Below are positions 7,992 through 28,256 of a stretch of DNA of 28,256 bases, in pieces. The notes below the pieces were generated by a model. That model had not been told where the DNA came from. It worked only from the letters and a program-made list of their open reading frames with translations, and did not search any database. Positions within the stretch are counted from its first letter, which is position 1. The number at the start of each line of letters is the position of its first letter. The translations under genes and the position numbers were made by a program. The DNA is from a virus (Duplodnaviria; Caudoviricetes): positions 1-28,256 of the IMG/VR virus record IMGVR_UViG_3300036982_000017. One strand, given 5' to 3'.

Positions 7992-8001
7992 GGAGATAGA
8001 G

Positions 8002-11909: not shown

Positions 11910-11916
11910 TATGATC

Positions 11917-11938
11917 GGGGCCGGGTAACACCGGCCCC
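11917..11938 (+). terminator. GC hairpin after MCP without U-tract (leaky terminator or mRNA-stabilising stem)
   Basis: GGGGCCGG-GTAACA-CCGGCCCC, followed by CCTCAC rather than a T run. Confidence 0.55.
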
Positions 11939-11959
11939 CCTCACACATAGGAACCACAG

Positions 11960-13306: not shown

Positions 13307-14131
13307 ATGGCGAACGGTCGCGACTACGGCTCATTCGACTACGGCATAGGCGTATACGGTCAGGCTCTGATCGTAGACGCCGCAGTCACTATGGCAGCGA
13401 CCAGCAGCGCATCTGCCGCAGCCATACAGAGATCGGTGGCGTCTGCTACCGCAGCGGTTCAGAGTAACGCCACGGCGACCGTGGTGCGCATTGAAGCTGC
13501 CGCGATGTCCGCAAGCGCCACGACCGGCGCGTCCGCCGTTGCGGTTATGATTGTCGTGGCCGCAGAGACGATCTCGGCAACGTCAAACGCATCAGCAGCC
13601 GCACAGCGCGTGCGCACTGCGTCGATCACGGCGGCGGCTCAGAGTAGTGCTGCGGCGACATCAATCCGCGTGCAGCCAGCCTCCGCTACGGGCGCGGCAC
13701 AGAGCGGCGGTACGGCTGATCCGTATGTCGTTCAGCTCGCTGCGGCCACTGGTGCGGCGACGTCTGCGGCTACGGCTGCGGTCGTTCGGATCAGGTCTGC
13801 CGCGATCACAGCCGCAGCCACCAGCTCCGCGAGTGCGGGTGGCACTGCGACTTATTCTGGTGTATGTAATATCGAAGCACAGAGCGCGGCAGAGGCCGTC
13901 CCAGTGCGAGTACTATTCGGCATCGCGTCGTCGATTGTCGTGTCAAGCATGACGGCGAACGGTCGCTACCTGTGGGAGCCAGACGCGGTACCCGCAGAGA
14001 CATGGGCAGCCGAGACGGTGTCGGACGAGATGTGGACGCCGGTGGGCAACTCTGGCGGTTCGTGGGCGGTTCTGGACGTGGCGAGCGATACTTGGACACC
14101 GGCGAGCGTATCGCCACAGACATGGCAGTAG
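13307..14131 (+). CDS. Ala-rich repetitive fibre-like protein with YG-rich N-terminus and 10-aa Trp-periodic C-terminus
   Basis: DYGSFDYGIGVYG; ~21-aa A/S/T repeats; six Trp residues spaced exactly 10 aa apart at the C-terminus. Confidence 0.7.
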   Translation: MANGRDYGSFDYGIGVYGQALIVDAAVTMAATSSASAAAIQRSVASATAAVQSNATATVVRIEAAAMSASATTGASAVAVMIVVAAETISATSNASAAAQRVRTASITAAAQSSAAATSIRVQPASATGAAQSGGTADPYVVQLAAATGAATSAATAAVVRIRSAAITAAATSSASAGGTATYSGVCNIEAQSAAEAVPVRVLFGIASSIVVSSMTANGRYLWEPDAVPAETWAAETVSDEMWTPVGNSGGSWAVLDVASDTWTPASVSPQTWQ

Positions 14132-14140
14132 GAGACAACG

Positions 14141-16669: not shown

Positions 16670-16920
16670 GGATCAAGGAAGACGAACTCCACGCCCTTCT
16701 CCAGTTTATCATCGGGATAAGTCTATGCCTGACGCTGACGGGTACTGTGTTCGCCGTGCTGTACAGCCTGATCTTCGTCGTGCAGCCGATTGACGGGCAG
16801 GCTCCAAACGATCAGGAGTTCTTCAAGCTGATCGCACCTATCGCAACATTCTTAACAGGCACTTTGTCGGGCATCATGCTTGGCAGCAAATCTACCGGAG
16901 ACAAAAATGGACCTACTTAA
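16666..16920 (+). CDS. Two-TM membrane protein (84 aa)
   Basis: ATG 16666 (MRIKEDEL...) with two hydrophobic segments; coupled to the lipoprotein gene. Confidence 0.7.
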   Translation: MRIKEDELHALLQFIIGISLCLTLTGTVFAVLYSLIFVVQPIDGQAPNDQEFFKLIAPIATFLTGTLSGIMLGSKSTGDKNGPT

Positions 16921-21604: not shown

Positions 21605-22150
21605 ATGAGTATACTCAGCGACATTGGTTCAATGTTTGGCGGCGGCGGATACCAGAATCAAGGCCGTGGCTCTGGTGTTGTGGATCGTTACGACAGCTAT
21701 GGTGCTGGTGGTGTCTACAACTCATATGGCCCGTACGGGAACTTGAGCCAATCCGAGTACAAGTCGCAGTATGGCGGTCGTGATCCCGCACCCGTAGATC
21801 GCTCAGGCGATCAGGGCGGCGGTGGAAGTAGTGGCGGCGGCAAAGCCAAGCCGAAGACCATCGACGAGCTGATGGCTGAGTTCGACGTGTCGCAGTATGT
21901 TCCAACGGCACCGGCGACAAGCTATATGCCATTCTATAACGCAATCCCGCTGGACTACAGCAACACCGCGGGGCCGCAGTCTCCCGCGACGCAGATGGAC
22001 TACGGCCAGATGGTGCAGCAGTCGCTTCTTGCGGCACCGCAGCCGTCTATGCCGTCCGGTATCCTCGGCCCGTCAATGCAGACGCAGACGCCTCTTACGG
22101 CACCGATCAGCTATGAGGACTTCCTGCGCTACTACCGGGGTGGTCAGTGA
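21605..22150 (+). CDS. Low-complexity G/Y/P/Q-rich internal virion protein
   Basis: RBS AAGGAG before ATG 21605; located among ejection genes. Confidence 0.6.
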   Translation: MSILSDIGSMFGGGGYQNQGRGSGVVDRYDSYGAGGVYNSYGPYGNLSQSEYKSQYGGRDPAPVDRSGDQGGGGSSGGGKAKPKTIDELMAEFDVSQYVPTAPATSYMPFYNAIPLDYSNTAGPQSPATQMDYGQMVQQSLLAAPQPSMPSGILGPSMQTQTPLTAPISYEDFLRYYRGGQ

Positions 22151-22953
22151 TGGACCCAATACTCAAGCGCCTGCTCGAAGCTATCGCGGCACCGGAGAGC
22201 GGTGGCCGCTACAACGTGCGCTACACGCCGAAGGGCGGCGCTGAGTTCTCTGGCTATGGTCAGCACCCACGCATATTCGAACCCGGCCCAGCAGGCCCGT
22301 CATCGGCTGCGGGGAAGTATCAGATCACGGCTTCAACATACGACAGGCTCGGTGGCGGCTCGTTCACGCCAGAGGCGCAGGACGAGATGGCCGCTCGCTT
22401 GGCGGTGCAGGATTACAAGGCGCGGACAAACAGGGACTTGGTGGCAGACCTTCAGGCTGAGGGTTTATCATCACGCATACTGGGTGCGCTTTCACCGACA
22501 TGGACGGGCTTGAAAGATAACCCTAGCAAGGCCGTCTCGGCATACCAAGCCGCAGCACCGGCGTCGCAATACGCAGCCGCAGGCGAGAAGCCAGAGTATT
22601 ACCAGCAGTCGATCCCGTCTCGCGCTGTGATACCGCAGACCATGATGGCGTCAGCACAGCCAACCGAAGCAGCAGCAGCCACTACGCAACCCGTCTACGC
22701 GCAAGACCTCGCGACGACGCTGCGCCTGATCGGCAGCAAGATTGCGCCGGGGTCTATCGACGCACCCGTGCCGATGACGCCGGAGCAGCAGGCTGCGTCT
22801 AAGGTGCAGCAGGGGCGGATCACGGACGCCGGTAAGTCGTTCGCGCAGCTCGCGGCGCTGTCGGCGCAGCAAGACCCGGTAGAGATGCTGCGGCAATTTG
22901 ATTTCCAGAGGCGCAAGCCTCCGGTGCTACAATACCCTCGCGGACTGCTTTAA
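22150..22953 (+). CDS. Virion-associated muramidase / lytic transglycosylase (lambda R / GH104-like N-terminal domain)
   Basis: IAAPESGGRYNV, SSAAGKYQI..STYD, FTPEAQD, LSPTWTGL; A/Q/P-rich tail. Confidence 0.8.
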   Translation: MDPILKRLLEAIAAPESGGRYNVRYTPKGGAEFSGYGQHPRIFEPGPAGPSSAAGKYQITASTYDRLGGGSFTPEAQDEMAARLAVQDYKARTNRDLVADLQAEGLSSRILGALSPTWTGLKDNPSKAVSAYQAAAPASQYAAAGEKPEYYQQSIPSRAVIPQTMMASAQPTEAAAATTQPVYAQDLATTLRLIGSKIAPGSIDAPVPMTPEQQAASKVQQGRITDAGKSFAQLAALSAQQDPVEMLRQFDFQRRKPPVLQYPRGLL

Positions 22954-22964
22954 GGAGACACGAC

Positions 22965-24482
22965 ATGGGAATTCTCGATTTCTTCACCGGCGGCGGCGAG
23001 TACGCAGACCCGAACGCAATCGACGAGCGCTACGGCGTCTCCAAGGGCGACGTGCGTCAGGCTGCGCTGAACACTCTCGGCAACGTGTCCGGGCTGCTCT
23101 TGGCTGCCGGCCAGCCGATGAGCGGATCGCAGCGTGCGCAGTTGCTCGGCCAGCTTGGCCCGGCGTTCGGTGGTGCGCAGACGGACATCTATAACGCGGC
23201 ACAGCGACGCCTGCTCGGTGCGGAGAACGAGCAGAAGATGGCGCAGATGCAGCAGATGAAGTCTCTCGCCGACGAGATGAAAGACCCGGCAGCGTTTGCG
23301 GCCAAGTACGGATTCAACCCGAGCGGTCTGCCGCCACAGGCCGTGTCGGAAATACTTACTAAGCAGCTCACGACTAGGGCTTTGGAGACGGACGTCGACC
23401 GTAAGGTGAAAGATTTGCTTAGGGGCATTGGTACTGGGCCGGCTGCGGCACCTGTTGGAGATGGTACTGTCCCGACAGGAGACGCTACGGTGGGCGGTAT
23501 GCCCCCAGCAGAAGGCGCTGGGAGGGATTACGAAACATATATGAAAGCCGCTAAATTTTTTGCGGCAGAAGGGCGTATCGATGACGCAAAGCAGATGTAC
23601 GATATGGCCGCAAAGGTTAAGCCTGAAGCTGCCAAGCCGCAGCAGACGCAAATCGTAAACGGGACGCTGTACACATATAATGACGCAGAAGGCGCGTGGG
23701 AAGAGACTATCTCGGCTGACGAAAAGGAAAGAGAGAGAGTAATAGTCGGAGATATCGTATACGAGTTCAACCGAAGCACTCGCCAGTGGGAAAAGGTAAT
23801 TGAGGCAGACACGACAGCGAAAACAAAGGCCGCCGCATTTGCTGCCGCTCAACCTCTCCGTGCTGAGTTTATAGCTTTGCCAGCAGTCAAGACATTCACC
23901 GAATCACAGCGCAACTTGAACGTCATCACAGACATCGCAAAACGCGCAAACGGTGGTGAAGCCGGTATCGGCACAGGCGTAAACGACATCACGCTCGTCT
24001 ATAACTTCTTCAAGACACTCGACCCGACGTCGGTTGTCCGTGAGAGCGAGTTCGCGACGGTCGGCCAGAAGATGGGCCTGCCATCGCAGATTACTTCAGC
24101 GTTCCAGTCTGTATCGGGTGGCGGGTTCCTGCCACCAGAAATCAGGAATGAGTTGGTCAAGATCGCGGAACAATTCGTCAATGCGCAGTACGGCGACGTC
24201 AAAAGGCTCTCCGATGAGTATTCTAGAATGGCGACGACTATGGGGATCGACCCGAGCCTCGTCGTTCTTAACTTGAGGTCCGCGCAACCACAGCCGCCAA
24301 ACTCTGAACAGCCAACGGAAGAAGAGTTAGTTACGGGTGGCGCTAGCCTTGTCGATAAAATTAAGGCGACGACAAATCTCAAAGAACTTTTTGATATGGG
24401 GGTAAATGCTGAGGCGTGGGACAATGCCACGAAGGCGGCATATGCGGCTCGGTTGAAGCAACTCAATTCAGGAGGGAATTGA
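22965..24482 (+). CDS. Internal virion / DNA ejection protein
   Basis: MGILD N-terminus, helical body, D.TLVYNFFKTLDPTSVVRESEF motif; RBS AAGGAG. Confidence 0.65.
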   Translation: MGILDFFTGGGEYADPNAIDERYGVSKGDVRQAALNTLGNVSGLLLAAGQPMSGSQRAQLLGQLGPAFGGAQTDIYNAAQRRLLGAENEQKMAQMQQMKSLADEMKDPAAFAAKYGFNPSGLPPQAVSEILTKQLTTRALETDVDRKVKDLLRGIGTGPAAAPVGDGTVPTGDATVGGMPPAEGAGRDYETYMKAAKFFAAEGRIDDAKQMYDMAAKVKPEAAKPQQTQIVNGTLYTYNDAEGAWEETISADEKERERVIVGDIVYEFNRSTRQWEKVIEADTTAKTKAAAFAAAQPLRAEFIALPAVKTFTESQRNLNVITDIAKRANGGEAGIGTGVNDITLVYNFFKTLDPTSVVRESEFATVGQKMGLPSQITSAFQSVSGGGFLPPEIRNELVKIAEQFVNAQYGDVKRLSDEYSRMATTMGIDPSLVVLNLRSAQPQPPNSEQPTEEELVTGGASLVDKIKATTNLKELFDMGVNAEAWDNATKAAYAARLKQLNSGGN

Positions 24483-24483
24483 T

Positions 24484-26184
24484 ATGGCTGTTGATTACAA
24501 TAAGCTAATCCGCGACCAACGCGCTCTTGCCGCACGCAAGCTGGCCAACCGATCGCTGCCCGAGGAGTTGCTGCGTCAGGGTGGCTTAACTACGCGTGCG
24601 CTGGCTGTCCCTGCCGGTGGGGCTATGCTTGGTGCCGCCATGGGCGCACCGTTTATGGGTGTTGGCGCAATACCCGGGGCAATCGCCGGGGCTACGGCTG
24701 CATCTCTCGCAGAACCAATCTCGAACCTCGGGACGTCGATCTACAACTACTTCAGCGGCGCGAACCAGCCAACGGCGACGCAGACCATCGAGCAGGGTCT
24801 GACGAGCATGGGCCTGCCGCAGCCTGAGACGGCCACGGAGCGCGTCGTGCAGAGTGCGTCGCGTGCTCTGACAGATGCCGCCACAGGCGCTGCCGCAGCT
24901 CGTGGGGTTGCTAGTGCGTTACCGCAATTCACTGCCGGCAAGAGTGTCATGCAGACGCTTGCGGCAGAGCCGGGTGCGCAGGCTGCGTCGTCGGCTATCG
25001 GTGCAACCGTCGGTCAGGGTGCCGTCGAGCAGGGTATGTCACCAGCATTGGCTATGCCTTTGGGTATGCTTGCCGGGGCTGCGCCATATGTCAGGCCGAC
25101 GGCTATCGTTCCGCCATCTGGCGGCCCTGAACGGTCACGTCAGGTGGGTATGTTGCAGGAGCGCGGCGTCCCGCTTACGCCAGCCTCGGAGACGGGTAGT
25201 CCGTTCTTGAGCACTATGGAGAGCGTGATGAAGTTCCTGCCGACGTCTGCGACACGCGCAGTCTCAGCCGAGGACTTGCAGCAGCGTGGGTTTACGAGGG
25301 CGGTATTCAAGCAGGCTGGCCTCGATAGCGACATCGCGACGCCAGAAGCACTGCGGCAAGGGAGAACCAAGCTCGGCAAGGAGTATGACGATTTAGAAGC
25401 GCAGACGACATTTAAGGGCGATGAACAGACATTTGACGACTTGCTTAGAAATGAGCAGGACTACGTCGTCGGATTCCCTGACACAATCAAGCCAATCTAC
25501 AAGGCTCGCGTCGATGAAATCCTGAAGTATGCAGCCGGTGAGAAGACTGGCGATGGTAGCACCTACAAACGCTTGCAGAGTGCGTTGTCGGAGGAGGCGT
25601 CACGCGCTGAGCGCAGCACGGACCCGTCAGCCGGTTACTACGGCGAGGCAATGCGTGGGCTGCAACGTATTCTTGAGAGCACTATGGAACGGTCTGCCGG
25701 TGGCCCGGAGCTGAAAGATAAGTGGCGCGACCTGAACCGGCGATACGCCGTGTTCTCGCGCATCGAGGACGCGATGGGGACAGCCGGGCAGGATAAGCTC
25801 GGGACAGGGTTTATCCCGCCGGCACAACTTGCTGCGGCTGAACGCAGGCGGATCGGGCCGCAGCAGTACGCAGAAGGTGGCACGGATTTCACTGAGCTTG
25901 TCCGTGCCGGTGCGTCCGTCATCCCGAACCCCGTACCAAATAGCGGCACGGCGCAGCGCAGTTTCGTGCAGAACTTGCTGACAGGTGCTCGGTCGAGCGC
26001 TGCGCCAACGGCTGCTGGTGGCGCTGTGGGTGGCGTGCTCGGCTTCGATCCCGTGAGCATTCTGGCGGCTCTTGGTGGGCCATATGCGACATCTAAGGGG
26101 TATTACGGTCGCAAGATACCGCTGCCGGTTCTCGGCCTGCTCGGCGCTCAAGCTGGGCGCGGTGCTATGGAAGACCGCCGCTAA
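24484..26184 (+). CDS. Large internal virion / DNA ejection protein with Gly/Ala-rich hydrophobic segments
   Basis: GAMLGAAMGAP..GAIAGA, LPQPET..ER, PNSGTAQR; last gene of the late operon. Confidence 0.65.
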   Translation: MAVDYNKLIRDQRALAARKLANRSLPEELLRQGGLTTRALAVPAGGAMLGAAMGAPFMGVGAIPGAIAGATAASLAEPISNLGTSIYNYFSGANQPTATQTIEQGLTSMGLPQPETATERVVQSASRALTDAATGAAAARGVASALPQFTAGKSVMQTLAAEPGAQAASSAIGATVGQGAVEQGMSPALAMPLGMLAGAAPYVRPTAIVPPSGGPERSRQVGMLQERGVPLTPASETGSPFLSTMESVMKFLPTSATRAVSAEDLQQRGFTRAVFKQAGLDSDIATPEALRQGRTKLGKEYDDLEAQTTFKGDEQTFDDLLRNEQDYVVGFPDTIKPIYKARVDEILKYAAGEKTGDGSTYKRLQSALSEEASRAERSTDPSAGYYGEAMRGLQRILESTMERSAGGPELKDKWRDLNRRYAVFSRIEDAMGTAGQDKLGTGFIPPAQLAAAERRRIGPQQYAEGGTDFTELVRAGASVIPNPVPNSGTAQRSFVQNLLTGARSSAAPTAAGGAVGGVLGFDPVSILAALGGPYATSKGYYGRKIPLPVLGLLGAQAGRGAMEDRR

Positions 26185-26187
26185 CTC

Positions 26188-26196
26188 TGCTACAAT
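26188..26196 (+). promoter_or_regulatory. Extended -10 promoter element TGnTACAAT
   Basis: TGCTACAAT starting 4 nt after the stop of the last late gene; no good -35. Confidence 0.5.
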
Positions 26197-26198
26197 CC

Positions 26199-26280
26199 CG
26201 CCACTCGTTGATCAGGCGAGCGGCGTTGAGAGATGTCTCCGTCAGCCCCACCGGTGCCTCCCGCCCGGTGGGGCTTTTTC
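26199..26280 (+). ncRNA. Candidate ~80-nt small RNA with two anti-SD motifs, ending in an intrinsic terminator
   Basis: Own extended -10; 5' hairpin CGCCACTCG/CGAGCGGCG (one mismatch); linker TGTCTCCG; terminator loop TGCCTCCCGC. Confidence 0.45.
26244..26280 (+). terminator. Rho-independent terminator ending the late operon
   Basis: 11-bp perfect stem AGCCCCACCGG/CCGGTGGGGCT, 10-nt loop, followed by TTTTC. Confidence 0.9.
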
Positions 26281-26283
26281 GTG

Positions 26284-26348
26284 CGCAAAATTATTTTTGC
26301 GATATGCGTGTTTTCCCTATTGTATCTTTTTCAAAAGACGTTTATCAC
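26284..26348 (+). promoter_or_regulatory. Early promoter (-35 TTGTAT, 17 bp, -10 TATCAC) with two palindromic operators
   Basis: TTGTAT 26320-26325 and TATCAC 26343-26348; inverted repeats CGCAAAA-TTAT-TTTTGCG (26284-26301) and TCTTTT-TC-AAAAGA (26325-26338); locally AT-rich. Confidence 0.55.
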
Positions 26349-26391
26349 TGATTCACGGTCTGGTTGACCGGCAAACAAGCGGGAGAAGAAA

Positions 26392-26790
26392 ATGCAAGTA
26401 ACGACAAAGCAAGTCCAGAACGACGTTCCAGTGTGGGATGTTTTGATTGATGGCGAAGTGTGCGGCTGCATCACGCAGTTCCCCGGCGAAGGCCCAATGG
26501 CCACGGTCAAGATCGGTTATTCTAAGCGGACGATGGCGGCTGCTACTGTCCATTCCCTGATCAACGAGATTGGTTTGTATGTACGCGAAATTGAAATGAT
26601 CCGGCGGCGGGTAGATATTGACGGATTTGATGAGTACGCAGCCGAGCGCAAGATGGCGATTGGCGACCAAGAGCGCGTGTACGATGAGAGCGATTACTTC
26701 AACGAGGAGGAGGAGTATTGCAAACATCACGAGGCGATGTACTGGAAAGCAGACGCTCTCGGGTACAACGATGAGAACGAGGCATACTAA
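26392..26790 (+). CDS. Hypothetical early protein, acidic C-terminus
   Basis: 132 aa; conserved leader; DESDYFNEEEEY. Confidence 0.75.
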   Translation: MQVTTKQVQNDVPVWDVLIDGEVCGCITQFPGEGPMATVKIGYSKRTMAAATVHSLINEIGLYVREIEMIRRRVDIDGFDEYAAERKMAIGDQERVYDESDYFNEEEEYCKHHEAMYWKADALGYNDENEAY

Positions 26791-26836
26791 TTAACACGGG
26801 GAGCTGCGGCTCCCCACCAACCAACGGGAGAAGAAA

Positions 26837-27040
26837 ATGATCAAAATCGTAAAAACACAGCCAAGAGATTGGCACCCAACATTTGGTTATACACGCGCAC
26901 AATACGGCGTAACAGGACGGCCAGATATTCGCATTGTCAACGATTCACAGGGATGGCGGTGCTACGGTATCGGCCTCGGGTTAATTGTTGAAAGCCGAAA
27001 AGAACTTGAACACCAAATCTCAAAATCATTGCAATCTTAA
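26837..27040 (+). CDS. Hypothetical early protein (67 aa)
   Basis: Conserved leader; AT-richer sequence. Confidence 0.7.
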   Translation: MIKIVKTQPRDWHPTFGYTRAQYGVTGRPDIRIVNDSQGWRCYGIGLGLIVESRKELEHQISKSLQS

Positions 27041-27060
27041 AACGTAAGGATCGGAAGAAA

Positions 27061-27159
27061 ATGAAACTCATCACATTCATCATCGAGGGCATCGGCTTCG
27101 CGCTATTCATGGCCGCAGTGTGCGGCTCCGTGATTGTTCTTGACGCAATCACAAACTGA
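27061..27159 (+). CDS. 32-aa single-TM peptide
   Basis: Not in ORF track: MKLITFIIEGIGFALFMAAVCGSVIVLDAITN*. Leader AAGGATCGGAAGAAAATG; stop is 2 nt before the next leader repeat. Confidence 0.7.
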   Translation: MKLITFIIEGIGFALFMAAVCGSVIVLDAITN

Positions 27160-27173
27160 AACGGGAGAAGAAA

Positions 27174-27452
27174 ATGTTTTATGTCACGCCAATAGAAGAA
27201 GACACGTTCAAAGCGATTATCGAACACCACGCAGTATACAATGCTGTCTTTTGCTCCTCAACATTTCTGGAGGCGCAAGATTATGCGTTGGCGCTGAAAA
27301 AAAGCACGGGATTGAATTACACTGTCTCTGAATTAATTTTCAATATTTGGTCCAGTCAAACGATTGATGAAGCGAGGAAGAGAGAAGAAATTAAGATGGG
27401 AATAAGGTTGATCTGTGCAGACGGAGAGACACGATTAAAGGATGTGAGATAA
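27174..27452 (+). CDS. Hypothetical early protein (92 aa)
   Basis: Conserved leader; AT-rich. Confidence 0.7.
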   Translation: MFYVTPIEEDTFKAIIEHHAVYNAVFCSSTFLEAQDYALALKKSTGLNYTVSELIFNIWSSQTIDEARKREEIKMGIRLICADGETRLKDVR

Positions 27453-27494
27453 CAGCAACTGGGCTTCGGCTCTATCAACAAACGGGAAACGAAA

Positions 27495-27899
27495 ATGAAC
27501 AACTCACCACTGGAAGCCGTATTCCACGCATACCGAAAGGCGGGGTCGGTCGAGGCTCTCGCAAAGGAGCTAGACGTGTCGGAGCAGTCCGTCGACAACT
27601 GGCTGAACATGAGGACGCGACCGCAGCGCGGCACCCTTGAGAGCATCATCGACTTAGCCACGCGCAAGTCGTCGTCTCTTCTAGAGGAAGACGTCGTGAT
27701 CACGCGCATGATGACGTCGGAATCGTCATCGGTCTACGGCTACGCGATGAACGATATGGGTGAGAGCGTGTTCCTGCCGCCGCATATCGTCACCGATCTG
27801 CATGAGAAGGGCTACGTCGAGGGCGACGTGTTCACGGCTCGCTTCAAGCCGCAGGACCACTCGAGCGCACCCTACTACTGCGTGAAGGTGATCCGATGA
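27495..27899 (+). CDS. Cro/XRE-like HTH protein with C-terminal OB-fold/cold-shock-like domain
   Basis: GSVEALAKELDVSEQSVDNWL..RTRP (HTH); YGYA..DMGESVFLP....EGDVFTARF (CSD/OB-like pattern). Confidence 0.65.
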   Translation: MNNSPLEAVFHAYRKAGSVEALAKELDVSEQSVDNWLNMRTRPQRGTLESIIDLATRKSSSLLEEDVVITRMMTSESSSVYGYAMNDMGESVFLPPHIVTDLHEKGYVEGDVFTARFKPQDHSSAPYYCVKVIR

Positions 27900-28256
27900 G
27901 CATGGTGATGGAGGAGATGGTTGACCACTACAAGGGCGTGCGTCAGCGGATGGCCGACGCAGCCAACCGGCACAGGCTGGACAAGATCGCTGAAGCCAAG
28001 GCGAAGGTAGAGGCGGACGCTCGGGCTGCGGCTGAGTTGGCCGAGCGCAACAAGCACATCACGAAGCAGCAGATCGAGAGAGTGAAGCGGCAGTGGGAGG
28101 AGCAGATCGCCATCACGAAGCAGCAGCTCGCGCTCCGAAAGCGAGACTGGGTCAAGATCACGAATGAGATCATCGACGCCAGAGAGATATCGTGGCGCGA
28201 TTTGGTGTCACCGGATCGTAGCTACAGGCTCGTCGCTGCGCGGCAGCACGTCTGGT
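27896..28256 (+). CDS. Partial protein with DnaA C-terminal-domain-like HTH (runs off window)
   Basis: Open frame from ATG 27896: MSMVMEEMVDHYKGVRQRM...coiled coil...ISWRDLVSPDRSYRLVAARQHVW, matching the DnaA domain IV start (dl.s..R...v.aRq). Confidence 0.6.
   Translation, partial: MSMVMEEMVDHYKGVRQRMADAANRHRLDKIAEAKAKVEADARAAAELAERNKHITKQQIERVKRQWEEQIAITKQQLALRKRDWVKITNEIIDAREISWRDLVSPDRSYRLVAARQHVW

Follow-up and report, generated by a model that had tools for sequence, protein, structure and literature searches.

Small regulatory cassettes between unrelated genes are described for T4-type phages, where PeSL (promoter-early stem-loop) cassettes form composites of a terminator and a promoter (PMC2839356, PMC4122927). 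Short phage RNAs form a second point of comparison: besides lambda 6S RNA, they include StxS, which is 74 nt long and also acts in trans, as well as PreS and VpdS (bioRxiv 10.1101/2024.10.31.621285). A third is provided by bacterial sRNAs with C/U-rich loops. The cuckoo/alpha-r14 sRNAs consist of 2-4 adjacent hairpins, and each of their loops (9-27 nt) carries CCUCCUCCC (PMC4615179), while AbcR1 folds into three hairpins and exposes UCCC in two single-stranded modules, of which M1 is part of a loop and M2 separates hairpins (PMC4152367).

The locus described here lies in a 28,256-base IMG/VR virus contig that is about 76% complete and is called the window in the following, meaning the whole stretch of DNA that was analysed. 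The 93 bases initially flagged in it belong to a longer cassette of 207 bp (26188-26394), of which they make up the left part. Like the PeSLs, this cassette is a composite of a small stem-loop terminator and a promoter-like sequence, and it is intergenic, reaching from a stop codon to an ATG, with homology limited to 26188-26394 and unrelated flanks. Since both kinds of element are conserved between otherwise unrelated flanking genes, both may be regarded as joints for modular gene swapping. The differences are equally clear: PeSLs occur in many copies that flank ORFans in hyperplastic regions, whereas the present cassette occurs as one full copy at the late/early junction of a podovirus-like phage of about 37 kb and lacks sequence similarity to PeSLs. 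Moreover, its promoter-like box, a promoter by prediction only, is located upstream of the terminator and would therefore make a short RNA.

This last feature links the locus to the lambda 6S unit (pR'-tR') and to StxS, which likewise combine a promoter, predicted in our case, with an intrinsic terminator within about 75-200 nt, ahead of an operon. 6S RNA and StxS, however, precede the late operon and depend on the Q antiterminator, whereas the present element lies in front of early genes, and none of the proteins that were scanned was recognised as Q-like. Sequence or Rfam similarity to 6S RNA, StxS, PreS or VpdS is likewise lacking.

With a probability of roughly 0.55, we interpret the element as a late-operon terminator within a mosaic late/early regulatory cassette, whose predicted promoter box would yield an RNA of about 75 nt. 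The strong terminator and the two hairpins that precede it would end transcription of the late operon, about 25 kb of genes for packaging, structure and ejection, just short of the early genes. The box TGCTACAAT, a predicted promoter, would give rise to a three-hairpin RNA of about 75 nt that ends at the same terminator, and the cassette as a whole would probably also serve, by analogy with PeSLs, as a recombination joint at which the flanking genes are swapped.

Boundaries and mosaic flanks of the cassette

Late genes occupy the + strand of the window through to 26184 and encode terminase, portal, scaffold, major capsid, tail fibre and several ejection-type proteins; the product of the last of them matches PHROG 26400, 'DNA ejection protein', with E 3e-25. 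The small early genes, one of which encodes an HTH protein, start at 26392, after the late block, and genes for an HNH endonuclease and a DNA invertase are found at the left end of the window (gene starts were picked manually from ORFs and SD motifs). G001, a complete relative, is 37,610 bases long and carries a terminal repeat of 127 bases; nearly all of its genes point in the same direction on the circular map. Its order leads from the early genes, which include HTH proteins, a DnaA_C-like protein, an exonuclease, methylases, a Holliday-junction resolvase and a helicase-primase, through the packaging, structural and ejection genes to the cassette, and from there to the early genes again. This gene order and the layout of the window thus place the element exactly at the late/early junction. 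The nearest cultured phage is Sinorhizobium phage phiM5, with a terminase (TerL) that is 67% and a capsid protein that is 50% identical.

At the left end of the contig, the gene at 305-1021 encodes a small serine recombinase of the DNA-invertase type (Resolvase + HTH_7). It is followed by a C-rich run (about 1027-1040) and by two direct repeats, GTCACGA(T/A)AATTCACA, at 1046-1061 and 1066-1081, immediately ahead of the genes for the HNH endonuclease and the large terminase. A late activator may bind to these repeats, or they may belong to the packaging region.

The boundaries of the cassette were determined by blastn. Its left edge of homology, in relatives with other upstream genes, is 26188, the T of TGCTACAAT, and its right edge, in relatives with another first early gene, is 26394, the G of the ATG. 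Between these positions the cassette is 86-94% identical in relatives, where it follows upstream genes that are unrelated and leads into any of five different first early genes; one and the same cassette thereby precedes five different coding starts across the variants. The protein encoded by the last late gene has 566 aa in the window and 657 aa in G001, and the two are likewise unrelated (E = 2.3). Exact homology edges and unrelated flanks thus define 26188-26394 as a discrete cassette that is kept between exchangeable genes. The window and the complete genome G001 each contain one full copy, and only a leader motif of 15-21 nt recurs.

Eight variants of the cassette, drawn from the window and at least nine other IMG/VR contigs, were available for comparison, seven of them distinct over the RNA part. 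Because all eight are close relatives, which fall into two types of the first hairpin (HP1), few independent changes are found among them. Pairwise divergence over the 28 variant pairs is 2.8% in the second hairpin (HP2) plus terminator, 9.1% in the spacer plus leader and, by subtraction, about 27% in the part that comprises the -10 box, the discriminator and HP1. The conserved AT-rich block behind the terminator (Table 1) might act as a promoter UP-like element.

Among the loci of distant relatives obtained by a profile search with the ejection protein, six of 20 contain the cassette and 14 gave no match. The junctions without it use other terminators or promoters, and the junction terminator of one relative (L323) has the loop UGCAAA. 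A canonical promoter, TTGACT-18-TATGGT, is present at the late/early junction of three further loci (L327:8590-8650, L330:7900-7945 and L331:8510-8570), where an inverted repeat of 13 bases, CTCCCCCGTGATC...GATCGCGGGGGAG, surrounds it and supplies, in its right arm, the Shine-Dalgarno sequence for the small gene that follows. Two other distant relatives (L009:1215-1700 and L010:2505-2985) carry a conserved non-coding region of about 450-480 nt upstream of the first early gene, the product of which is 41-42% identical by tblastn. The last element of this region is a hairpin that leaves about 45 nt to the ATG, and its two-sequence consensus fold has compensatory double changes in 12 of 109 predicted pairs. 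It yielded no Rfam match at E <= 1 and no tRNA, and may represent an undescribed large structured phage RNA; the first ~1150 bases of L009 contain no ORF of at least 70 aa.

Beyond these contigs, the cassette DNA had no match, near or distant, among cultured phage records. Species genomes of bacteria and archaea contained no match to the HP2/terminator pattern, and a profile of the first early protein found no relatives in them. A loose two-anchor pattern run over metagenome assemblies gave no cassette by blastn among the matches listed. No description of the cassette was found in the literature, which is not proof that none exists.

Table 1. Features of the cassette and related sites, in window coordinates
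Feature	Position	Strand	Basis
GGAGATA, further claimed linker target	7992-7998	+	sequence
GGAGACA, ribosome-binding site (RBS) of the tail-fibre gene, claimed linker target	14131-14137	+	sequence
GGAGACA, further claimed linker target	about 16896-16903	+	sequence
GGAGACA, further claimed linker target	22954-22960	+	sequence
Last late-operon gene, 566 aa, ejection-protein-like	24484-26184	+	ORF list; TAA stop at 26182-26184
P1, extended -10-like box TGCTACAAT, left cassette edge	26188-26196	+	sequence; three bases past TAA
Predicted RNA of about 75-77 nt, start A26203 to U-tract	26203-26279	+	inferred from -10 spacing
HP1, 6-bp hairpin CUCGUU-GAUCA-GGCGAG	26204-26220	+	single folds; 6-7 pairs across variants
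HP2, GGCG-UU-GAGA-GAUG-UCUC-CGUC (4+4 pairs, UU bulge)	26222-26243	+	consensus and single folds
Intrinsic terminator, 13-pair GC-rich stem, one bulged U	26244-26279 (stem 26244-26275)	+	fold
AT-rich block AAAATTATTTTT, directly 3' of terminator	26287-26298	+	conserved in variant alignment
P2 candidate, TTGTAT, 17-nt spacer, TATCAC (TATAAC in relatives)	26320-26348	+	rough PWM, below P1
Small leader hairpin CGGUC-UGGUU-GACCG	26356-26370	+	invariant leader block, kept in 8/8 variants
Start region GCGGGAGAAGAAAATG of first early gene, ATG at 26392	26379-26394	+	right cassette edge
Start-region motif CGGGAGAAGAAAATG, second early gene	26825-26839	+	sequence comparison
Start-region motif CGGGAGAAGAAAATG, third early gene	27162-27176	+	sequence comparison
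CGGGAAACGAAAATG version of the motif, fourth early gene (start 27495)	27483-27497	+	sequence comparison

Predicted hairpins, terminator and promoter-like box

The RNA beginning at the predicted start, 26203, folds with -40.8 kcal/mol (z -4.43), and the whole region with -47.1 kcal/mol (z -3.7 versus shuffles). HP1, HP2 and the terminator form a common predicted fold in all eight variants, with the first purine 7-8 bases past the box taken as the start. HP1 is the most variable part of this RNA, yet its stem is always kept: position 5 is a U-G or C-G pair, position 6 a U-G, C-G or U-A pair, and the loop reads GAUCA, GCUUCA, GUUUCA or GCUUGAAA. HP2 differs by a G-U to G-C change in variant L002 and by a loop base (G to A) in variant L277, and the terminator stem by a single C-G to U-G change. 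Every substitution within a stem preserves pairing by way of G-U pairs (HP1 positions 5 and 6, HP2 in L002, and the terminator), which form only in the RNA of the + strand. Double compensatory changes were found in none of the 21 pairs of the consensus fold of these eight close variants; the structural support that the variants provide is real but thin.

Two other interpretations of this region were rejected. An ORF of 44 aa with a hydrophobic stretch (26233-26367), which spans the terminator, was dismissed as a small protein because four of the eight variants carry a 1-nt deletion and L277 has ATA in place of ATG. We also considered an element like lambda boxB/nut or like HK022 put, whose RNA acts on the polymerase; the two HP1 types, however, have different loops, and the region showed nothing resembling boxA.

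The terminator has the GC-rich stem, the short loop and the immediate U-tract (TTTTT, 26275-26279) of an intrinsic terminator. A loop of 10 nt had been proposed for it from the sequence, in place of which the minimum-energy fold has one of 5 nt, CUCCC (26258-26262), or CCUCC in four relatives, and a terminator scan of the relatives gave 13 pairs, 9 of them GC, with a 5-nt loop. With 60 nt between it and the preceding stop codon, that of the last late gene, the terminator comes at the end of a unit that is co-directional, all of its genes being on the + strand. Most likely, then, judging from its structure and position, it would end the late operon. GC-rich hairpins without a U-tract are also found 3' of the major capsid gene (11915-11942, GGGGCCGG...CCGGCCCC) and 3' of the first early gene (26798-26815, GGGGAGC-UGCG-GCUCCCC).

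The extended -10 that had been recognised at the left edge of the element is indeed present. Apart from one A/T position, the box, TGCTAC[A/T]AT, is invariant in all eight variants, and the 7-8 discriminator bases that follow it vary. It matches seven of eight positions of the Caulobacter RpoD -10 consensus, GCtANAWC (PMC8144410). In three variants a -35-like TTGGCG or TTGGCT is located 17 bp upstream of the box; the window's own -35 region (TGGAAG) is poor, and a sigma-70 promoter scan called P1 neither in the window nor in three relatives. By a rough PWM, which uses E. coli base frequencies that may not fit the host, P1 ranks best or second-best among the promoter-like sites of the cassette in seven of seven variants. 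TTGACC-18-GAAAAT, the other site at the top of the ranking, overlaps the start codon and is unable to drive gene 1. We give P1 about an even chance of being active as a promoter. A transcript of about 75 nt starting near 26203 is plausible, since a conserved -10-like box lies at the 5' edge and a strong terminator at the 3' end.

A second exact copy of TGCTACAAT occurs at 22925-22933, inside the 3' end of the gene at 22147-22953, and in the same place in G001. It stands 32 bases before the GGAGACA RBS of the gene at 22965. The last two late genes may have an internal promoter here, or the copy may have arisen by chance.

The conservation of the box might also reflect nothing but its position within a recombination block. 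There would then be no promoter and no sRNA, and the hairpins and the terminator would form the 3' end of the late mRNA, where they provide termination and protection from 3' exonucleases. We consider this possible, if rather unlikely. The silence of the sigma-70 scan, the weak -35 of the window and the location of the terminator, precisely where the late operon needs one, all agree with such an arrangement, as do the hairpins without a U-tract behind the capsid gene and the first early gene. It is harder to reconcile with the conserved block starting exactly at the box instead of at the first hairpin, and with a box that is held constant next to 7-8 changing bases. Furthermore, it is the short form of HP1, beginning one base past the predicted start, that is kept, whereas the longer HP1 expected in a read-through RNA is not kept in four variants.

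A different role for P1 may also be considered. The rough PWM detected no clearly better early promoter 3' of the terminator, and the P2 candidate was not called by the sigma-70 scan; P1 may therefore drive the early genes by read-through. The three-hairpin RNA would in this case be a cis-acting leader, with the majority of transcripts ending at the terminator and the early genes depending on read-through, in the manner of lambda pR'-6S RNA-tR', StxS or the polymerase-modifying HK022 put. The cassette, which spans from a -10 box to a start codon, does have the shape of a promoter plus 5' leader, and P1 is the best promoter-like site upstream that is able to express gene 1. In addition, the structured region of about 450 nt in L009 and L010 ends about 45 nt before the homologous gene and leaves little room for a promoter there. 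However, a strong terminator in an immediate-early leader would be costly to the phage, and the hairpins would equally be present on late read-through RNA. A weaker candidate, TTGTAT-17-TATAAC, exists downstream. Nor was any antiterminator family of the Q or N type detected by Pfam and PHROGs in 23 G001 proteins, many of which lack any family, in a scan that also took in 5 and 7 further window proteins. Short terminated transcripts are known from lambda 6S RNA and StxS (bioRxiv 10.1101/2024.10.31.621285). We regard P1 as an unlikely early promoter, though as an alternative to be taken seriously, and prefer the late-operon terminator with a box that would yield the short RNA.

Complementarity to ribosome-binding sites

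The sequence-only reading had proposed a trans-acting sRNA, in which the loop CUCCCG and a linker UGUCUCC pair with two classes of RBSs and thereby switch translation. The underlying complementarities exist as sequence. The loop is complementary to GCGGGAG at 26379 and to CGGGAG at 26825 and 27162, and the linker to GGAGACA (14131, 16897, 22954) and GGAGATA (7992); three of the eight CGGGAG occurrences on the + strand and three of the four GGAGACA occurrences are located in start regions. C-rich anti-SD loops are moreover a known type of seed, described for cuckoo RNAs, AbcR1 and RNAIII (PMC4615179, PMC4152367). The potential targets are also stereotyped: the start motif (A/G)CGGGAGAAGAAAATG is common to the first three to four early genes and travels with different genes in relatives. 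It may act as a linker for recombination, as an optimised start region or as the target of some regulator.

The structure of the RNA leaves little of these sequences available for pairing. The succession of hairpin, linker and terminator was described correctly insofar as UGUCUCCG (26234-26241) and the U-tract are present; the supposed linker, however, is not single-stranded and forms the 3' arm of HP2, as predicted in all eight variants. Its probability of being unpaired is about 1e-5, and opening it costs 6.9-7.2 kcal/mol, which leaves a net energy of -3 to -5 kcal/mol. This is weaker than the binding of a generic 16S tail to the same leaders (-7.4 and -8.4 kcal/mol, by our own script). Variant L277, furthermore, alters one base within this seed. 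In the terminator loop, five bases are free (P = 0.98), and a sixth costs 3.3 kcal/mol to open. Pairing of the loop with GGGAG would contribute about -7 kcal/mol, which is within the range of the 16S tail. This 5-nt C/U loop comprises the only exposed conserved bases of the predicted RNA.

The likeness to sRNAs with anti-SD loops is accordingly limited in extent. In common with cuckoo RNAs, AbcR1 and S. aureus RNAIII (PMC4615179, PMC4152367), the predicted RNA has compact adjacent hairpins and a UCCC loop able to pair with GGGAG or GGAGG SD sequences, and like AbcR1 it has three hairpins. In contrast to the cuckoo RNAs, it has a C/U-rich loop in the terminator alone, and that loop has 5 nt (CUCCC or CCUCC); the loops of HP1 and HP2 are GAUCA and GAUG. 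AbcR1 differs in its second accessible module, whereas the RNA predicted here has one UCCC, in the loop, and a second C/U stretch that is paired. Kinship with AbcR or cuckoo RNAs, which the sequence-only reading had named as users of C/U-rich anti-SD loops, found no support in Rfam 15: no family gave a match at gathering score over the window or at E <= 1 over 24600-27900, and this includes the cuckoo and AbcR covariance models.

We compared the 76-nt RNA with 38 chosen start regions, counting perfect complements of fixed length against 11,272 phage windows and 2,000 shuffles. With 6-mers, 11 start regions were matched, a number equalled or exceeded by 8.0% of phage windows and 21% of shuffles, and with 8-mers a single one, equalled by 33% and 43%, respectively. 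With 7-mers, seven start regions were matched against a mean of 1.7 (equalled by 0.75% of windows and 1.2% of shuffles). This 7-mer signal speaks for pairing, but it is modest and post hoc, because the element was picked for those matches; three of the seven matches, besides, involve stems. In a seed test that takes accessibility into account, six start regions reached <= -6 kcal/mol, compared with a shuffle mean of 10.1, and 83% of shuffles did as well. The mean of the top five energies was equalled by 84% and the single best energy by 75% of shuffles. The test is crude, with 150 dinucleotide shuffles, ungapped helices and accessibility of the sRNA only, and its shuffles are less structured than the real RNA. 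The ranking of targets is thus no better than that of shuffled controls, the outcome that had been named beforehand as grounds for abandoning the proposal.

Comparison of the variants leads in the same direction. The loop is kept in all eight of them, as CUCCC or CCUCC, which is uninformative because divergence is so low. Loop and leader do not covary: GCGGGAG of the window is ACGGGAG in the seven other variants, where the seventh pair is lost and the loop shows no compensating change. The complementarity spans only 6 of the 15-17 leader bases that the early genes share, and more distant relatives have other loops. With a buried linker, no covariation and chance-level target ranking, a dual-seed anti-SD switch is not supported, and we consider the trans-acting sRNA in the form first proposed improbable. 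A narrower version fares no better in our estimate. It would have an sRNA of about 75 nt, made from its own promoter, whose hairpins also end the late mRNAs and whose anti-SD-mimic loop, with rising amounts of the RNA, docks on the early CGGGAG sites and shuts off early synthesis; this, too, we hold to be very doubtful. That the predicted RNA acts on RBSs in any way is unproven, and the data can be explained without it.

Implications for the phage group

Since a C/U-rich terminator loop always "matches" RBSs, such matches need accessibility and shuffle controls. The cassette marks the place where late transcription should stop and early control begin in an uncultured phage group that is distantly related to phiM5. 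If the short RNA is real, it would be unusual among phage small RNAs in its location in front of the early genes. One control cassette of 207 bp is kept in these phages while the genes on either side are exchanged, a linker-cassette form of phage mosaicism that has so far been described for T4-type phages.
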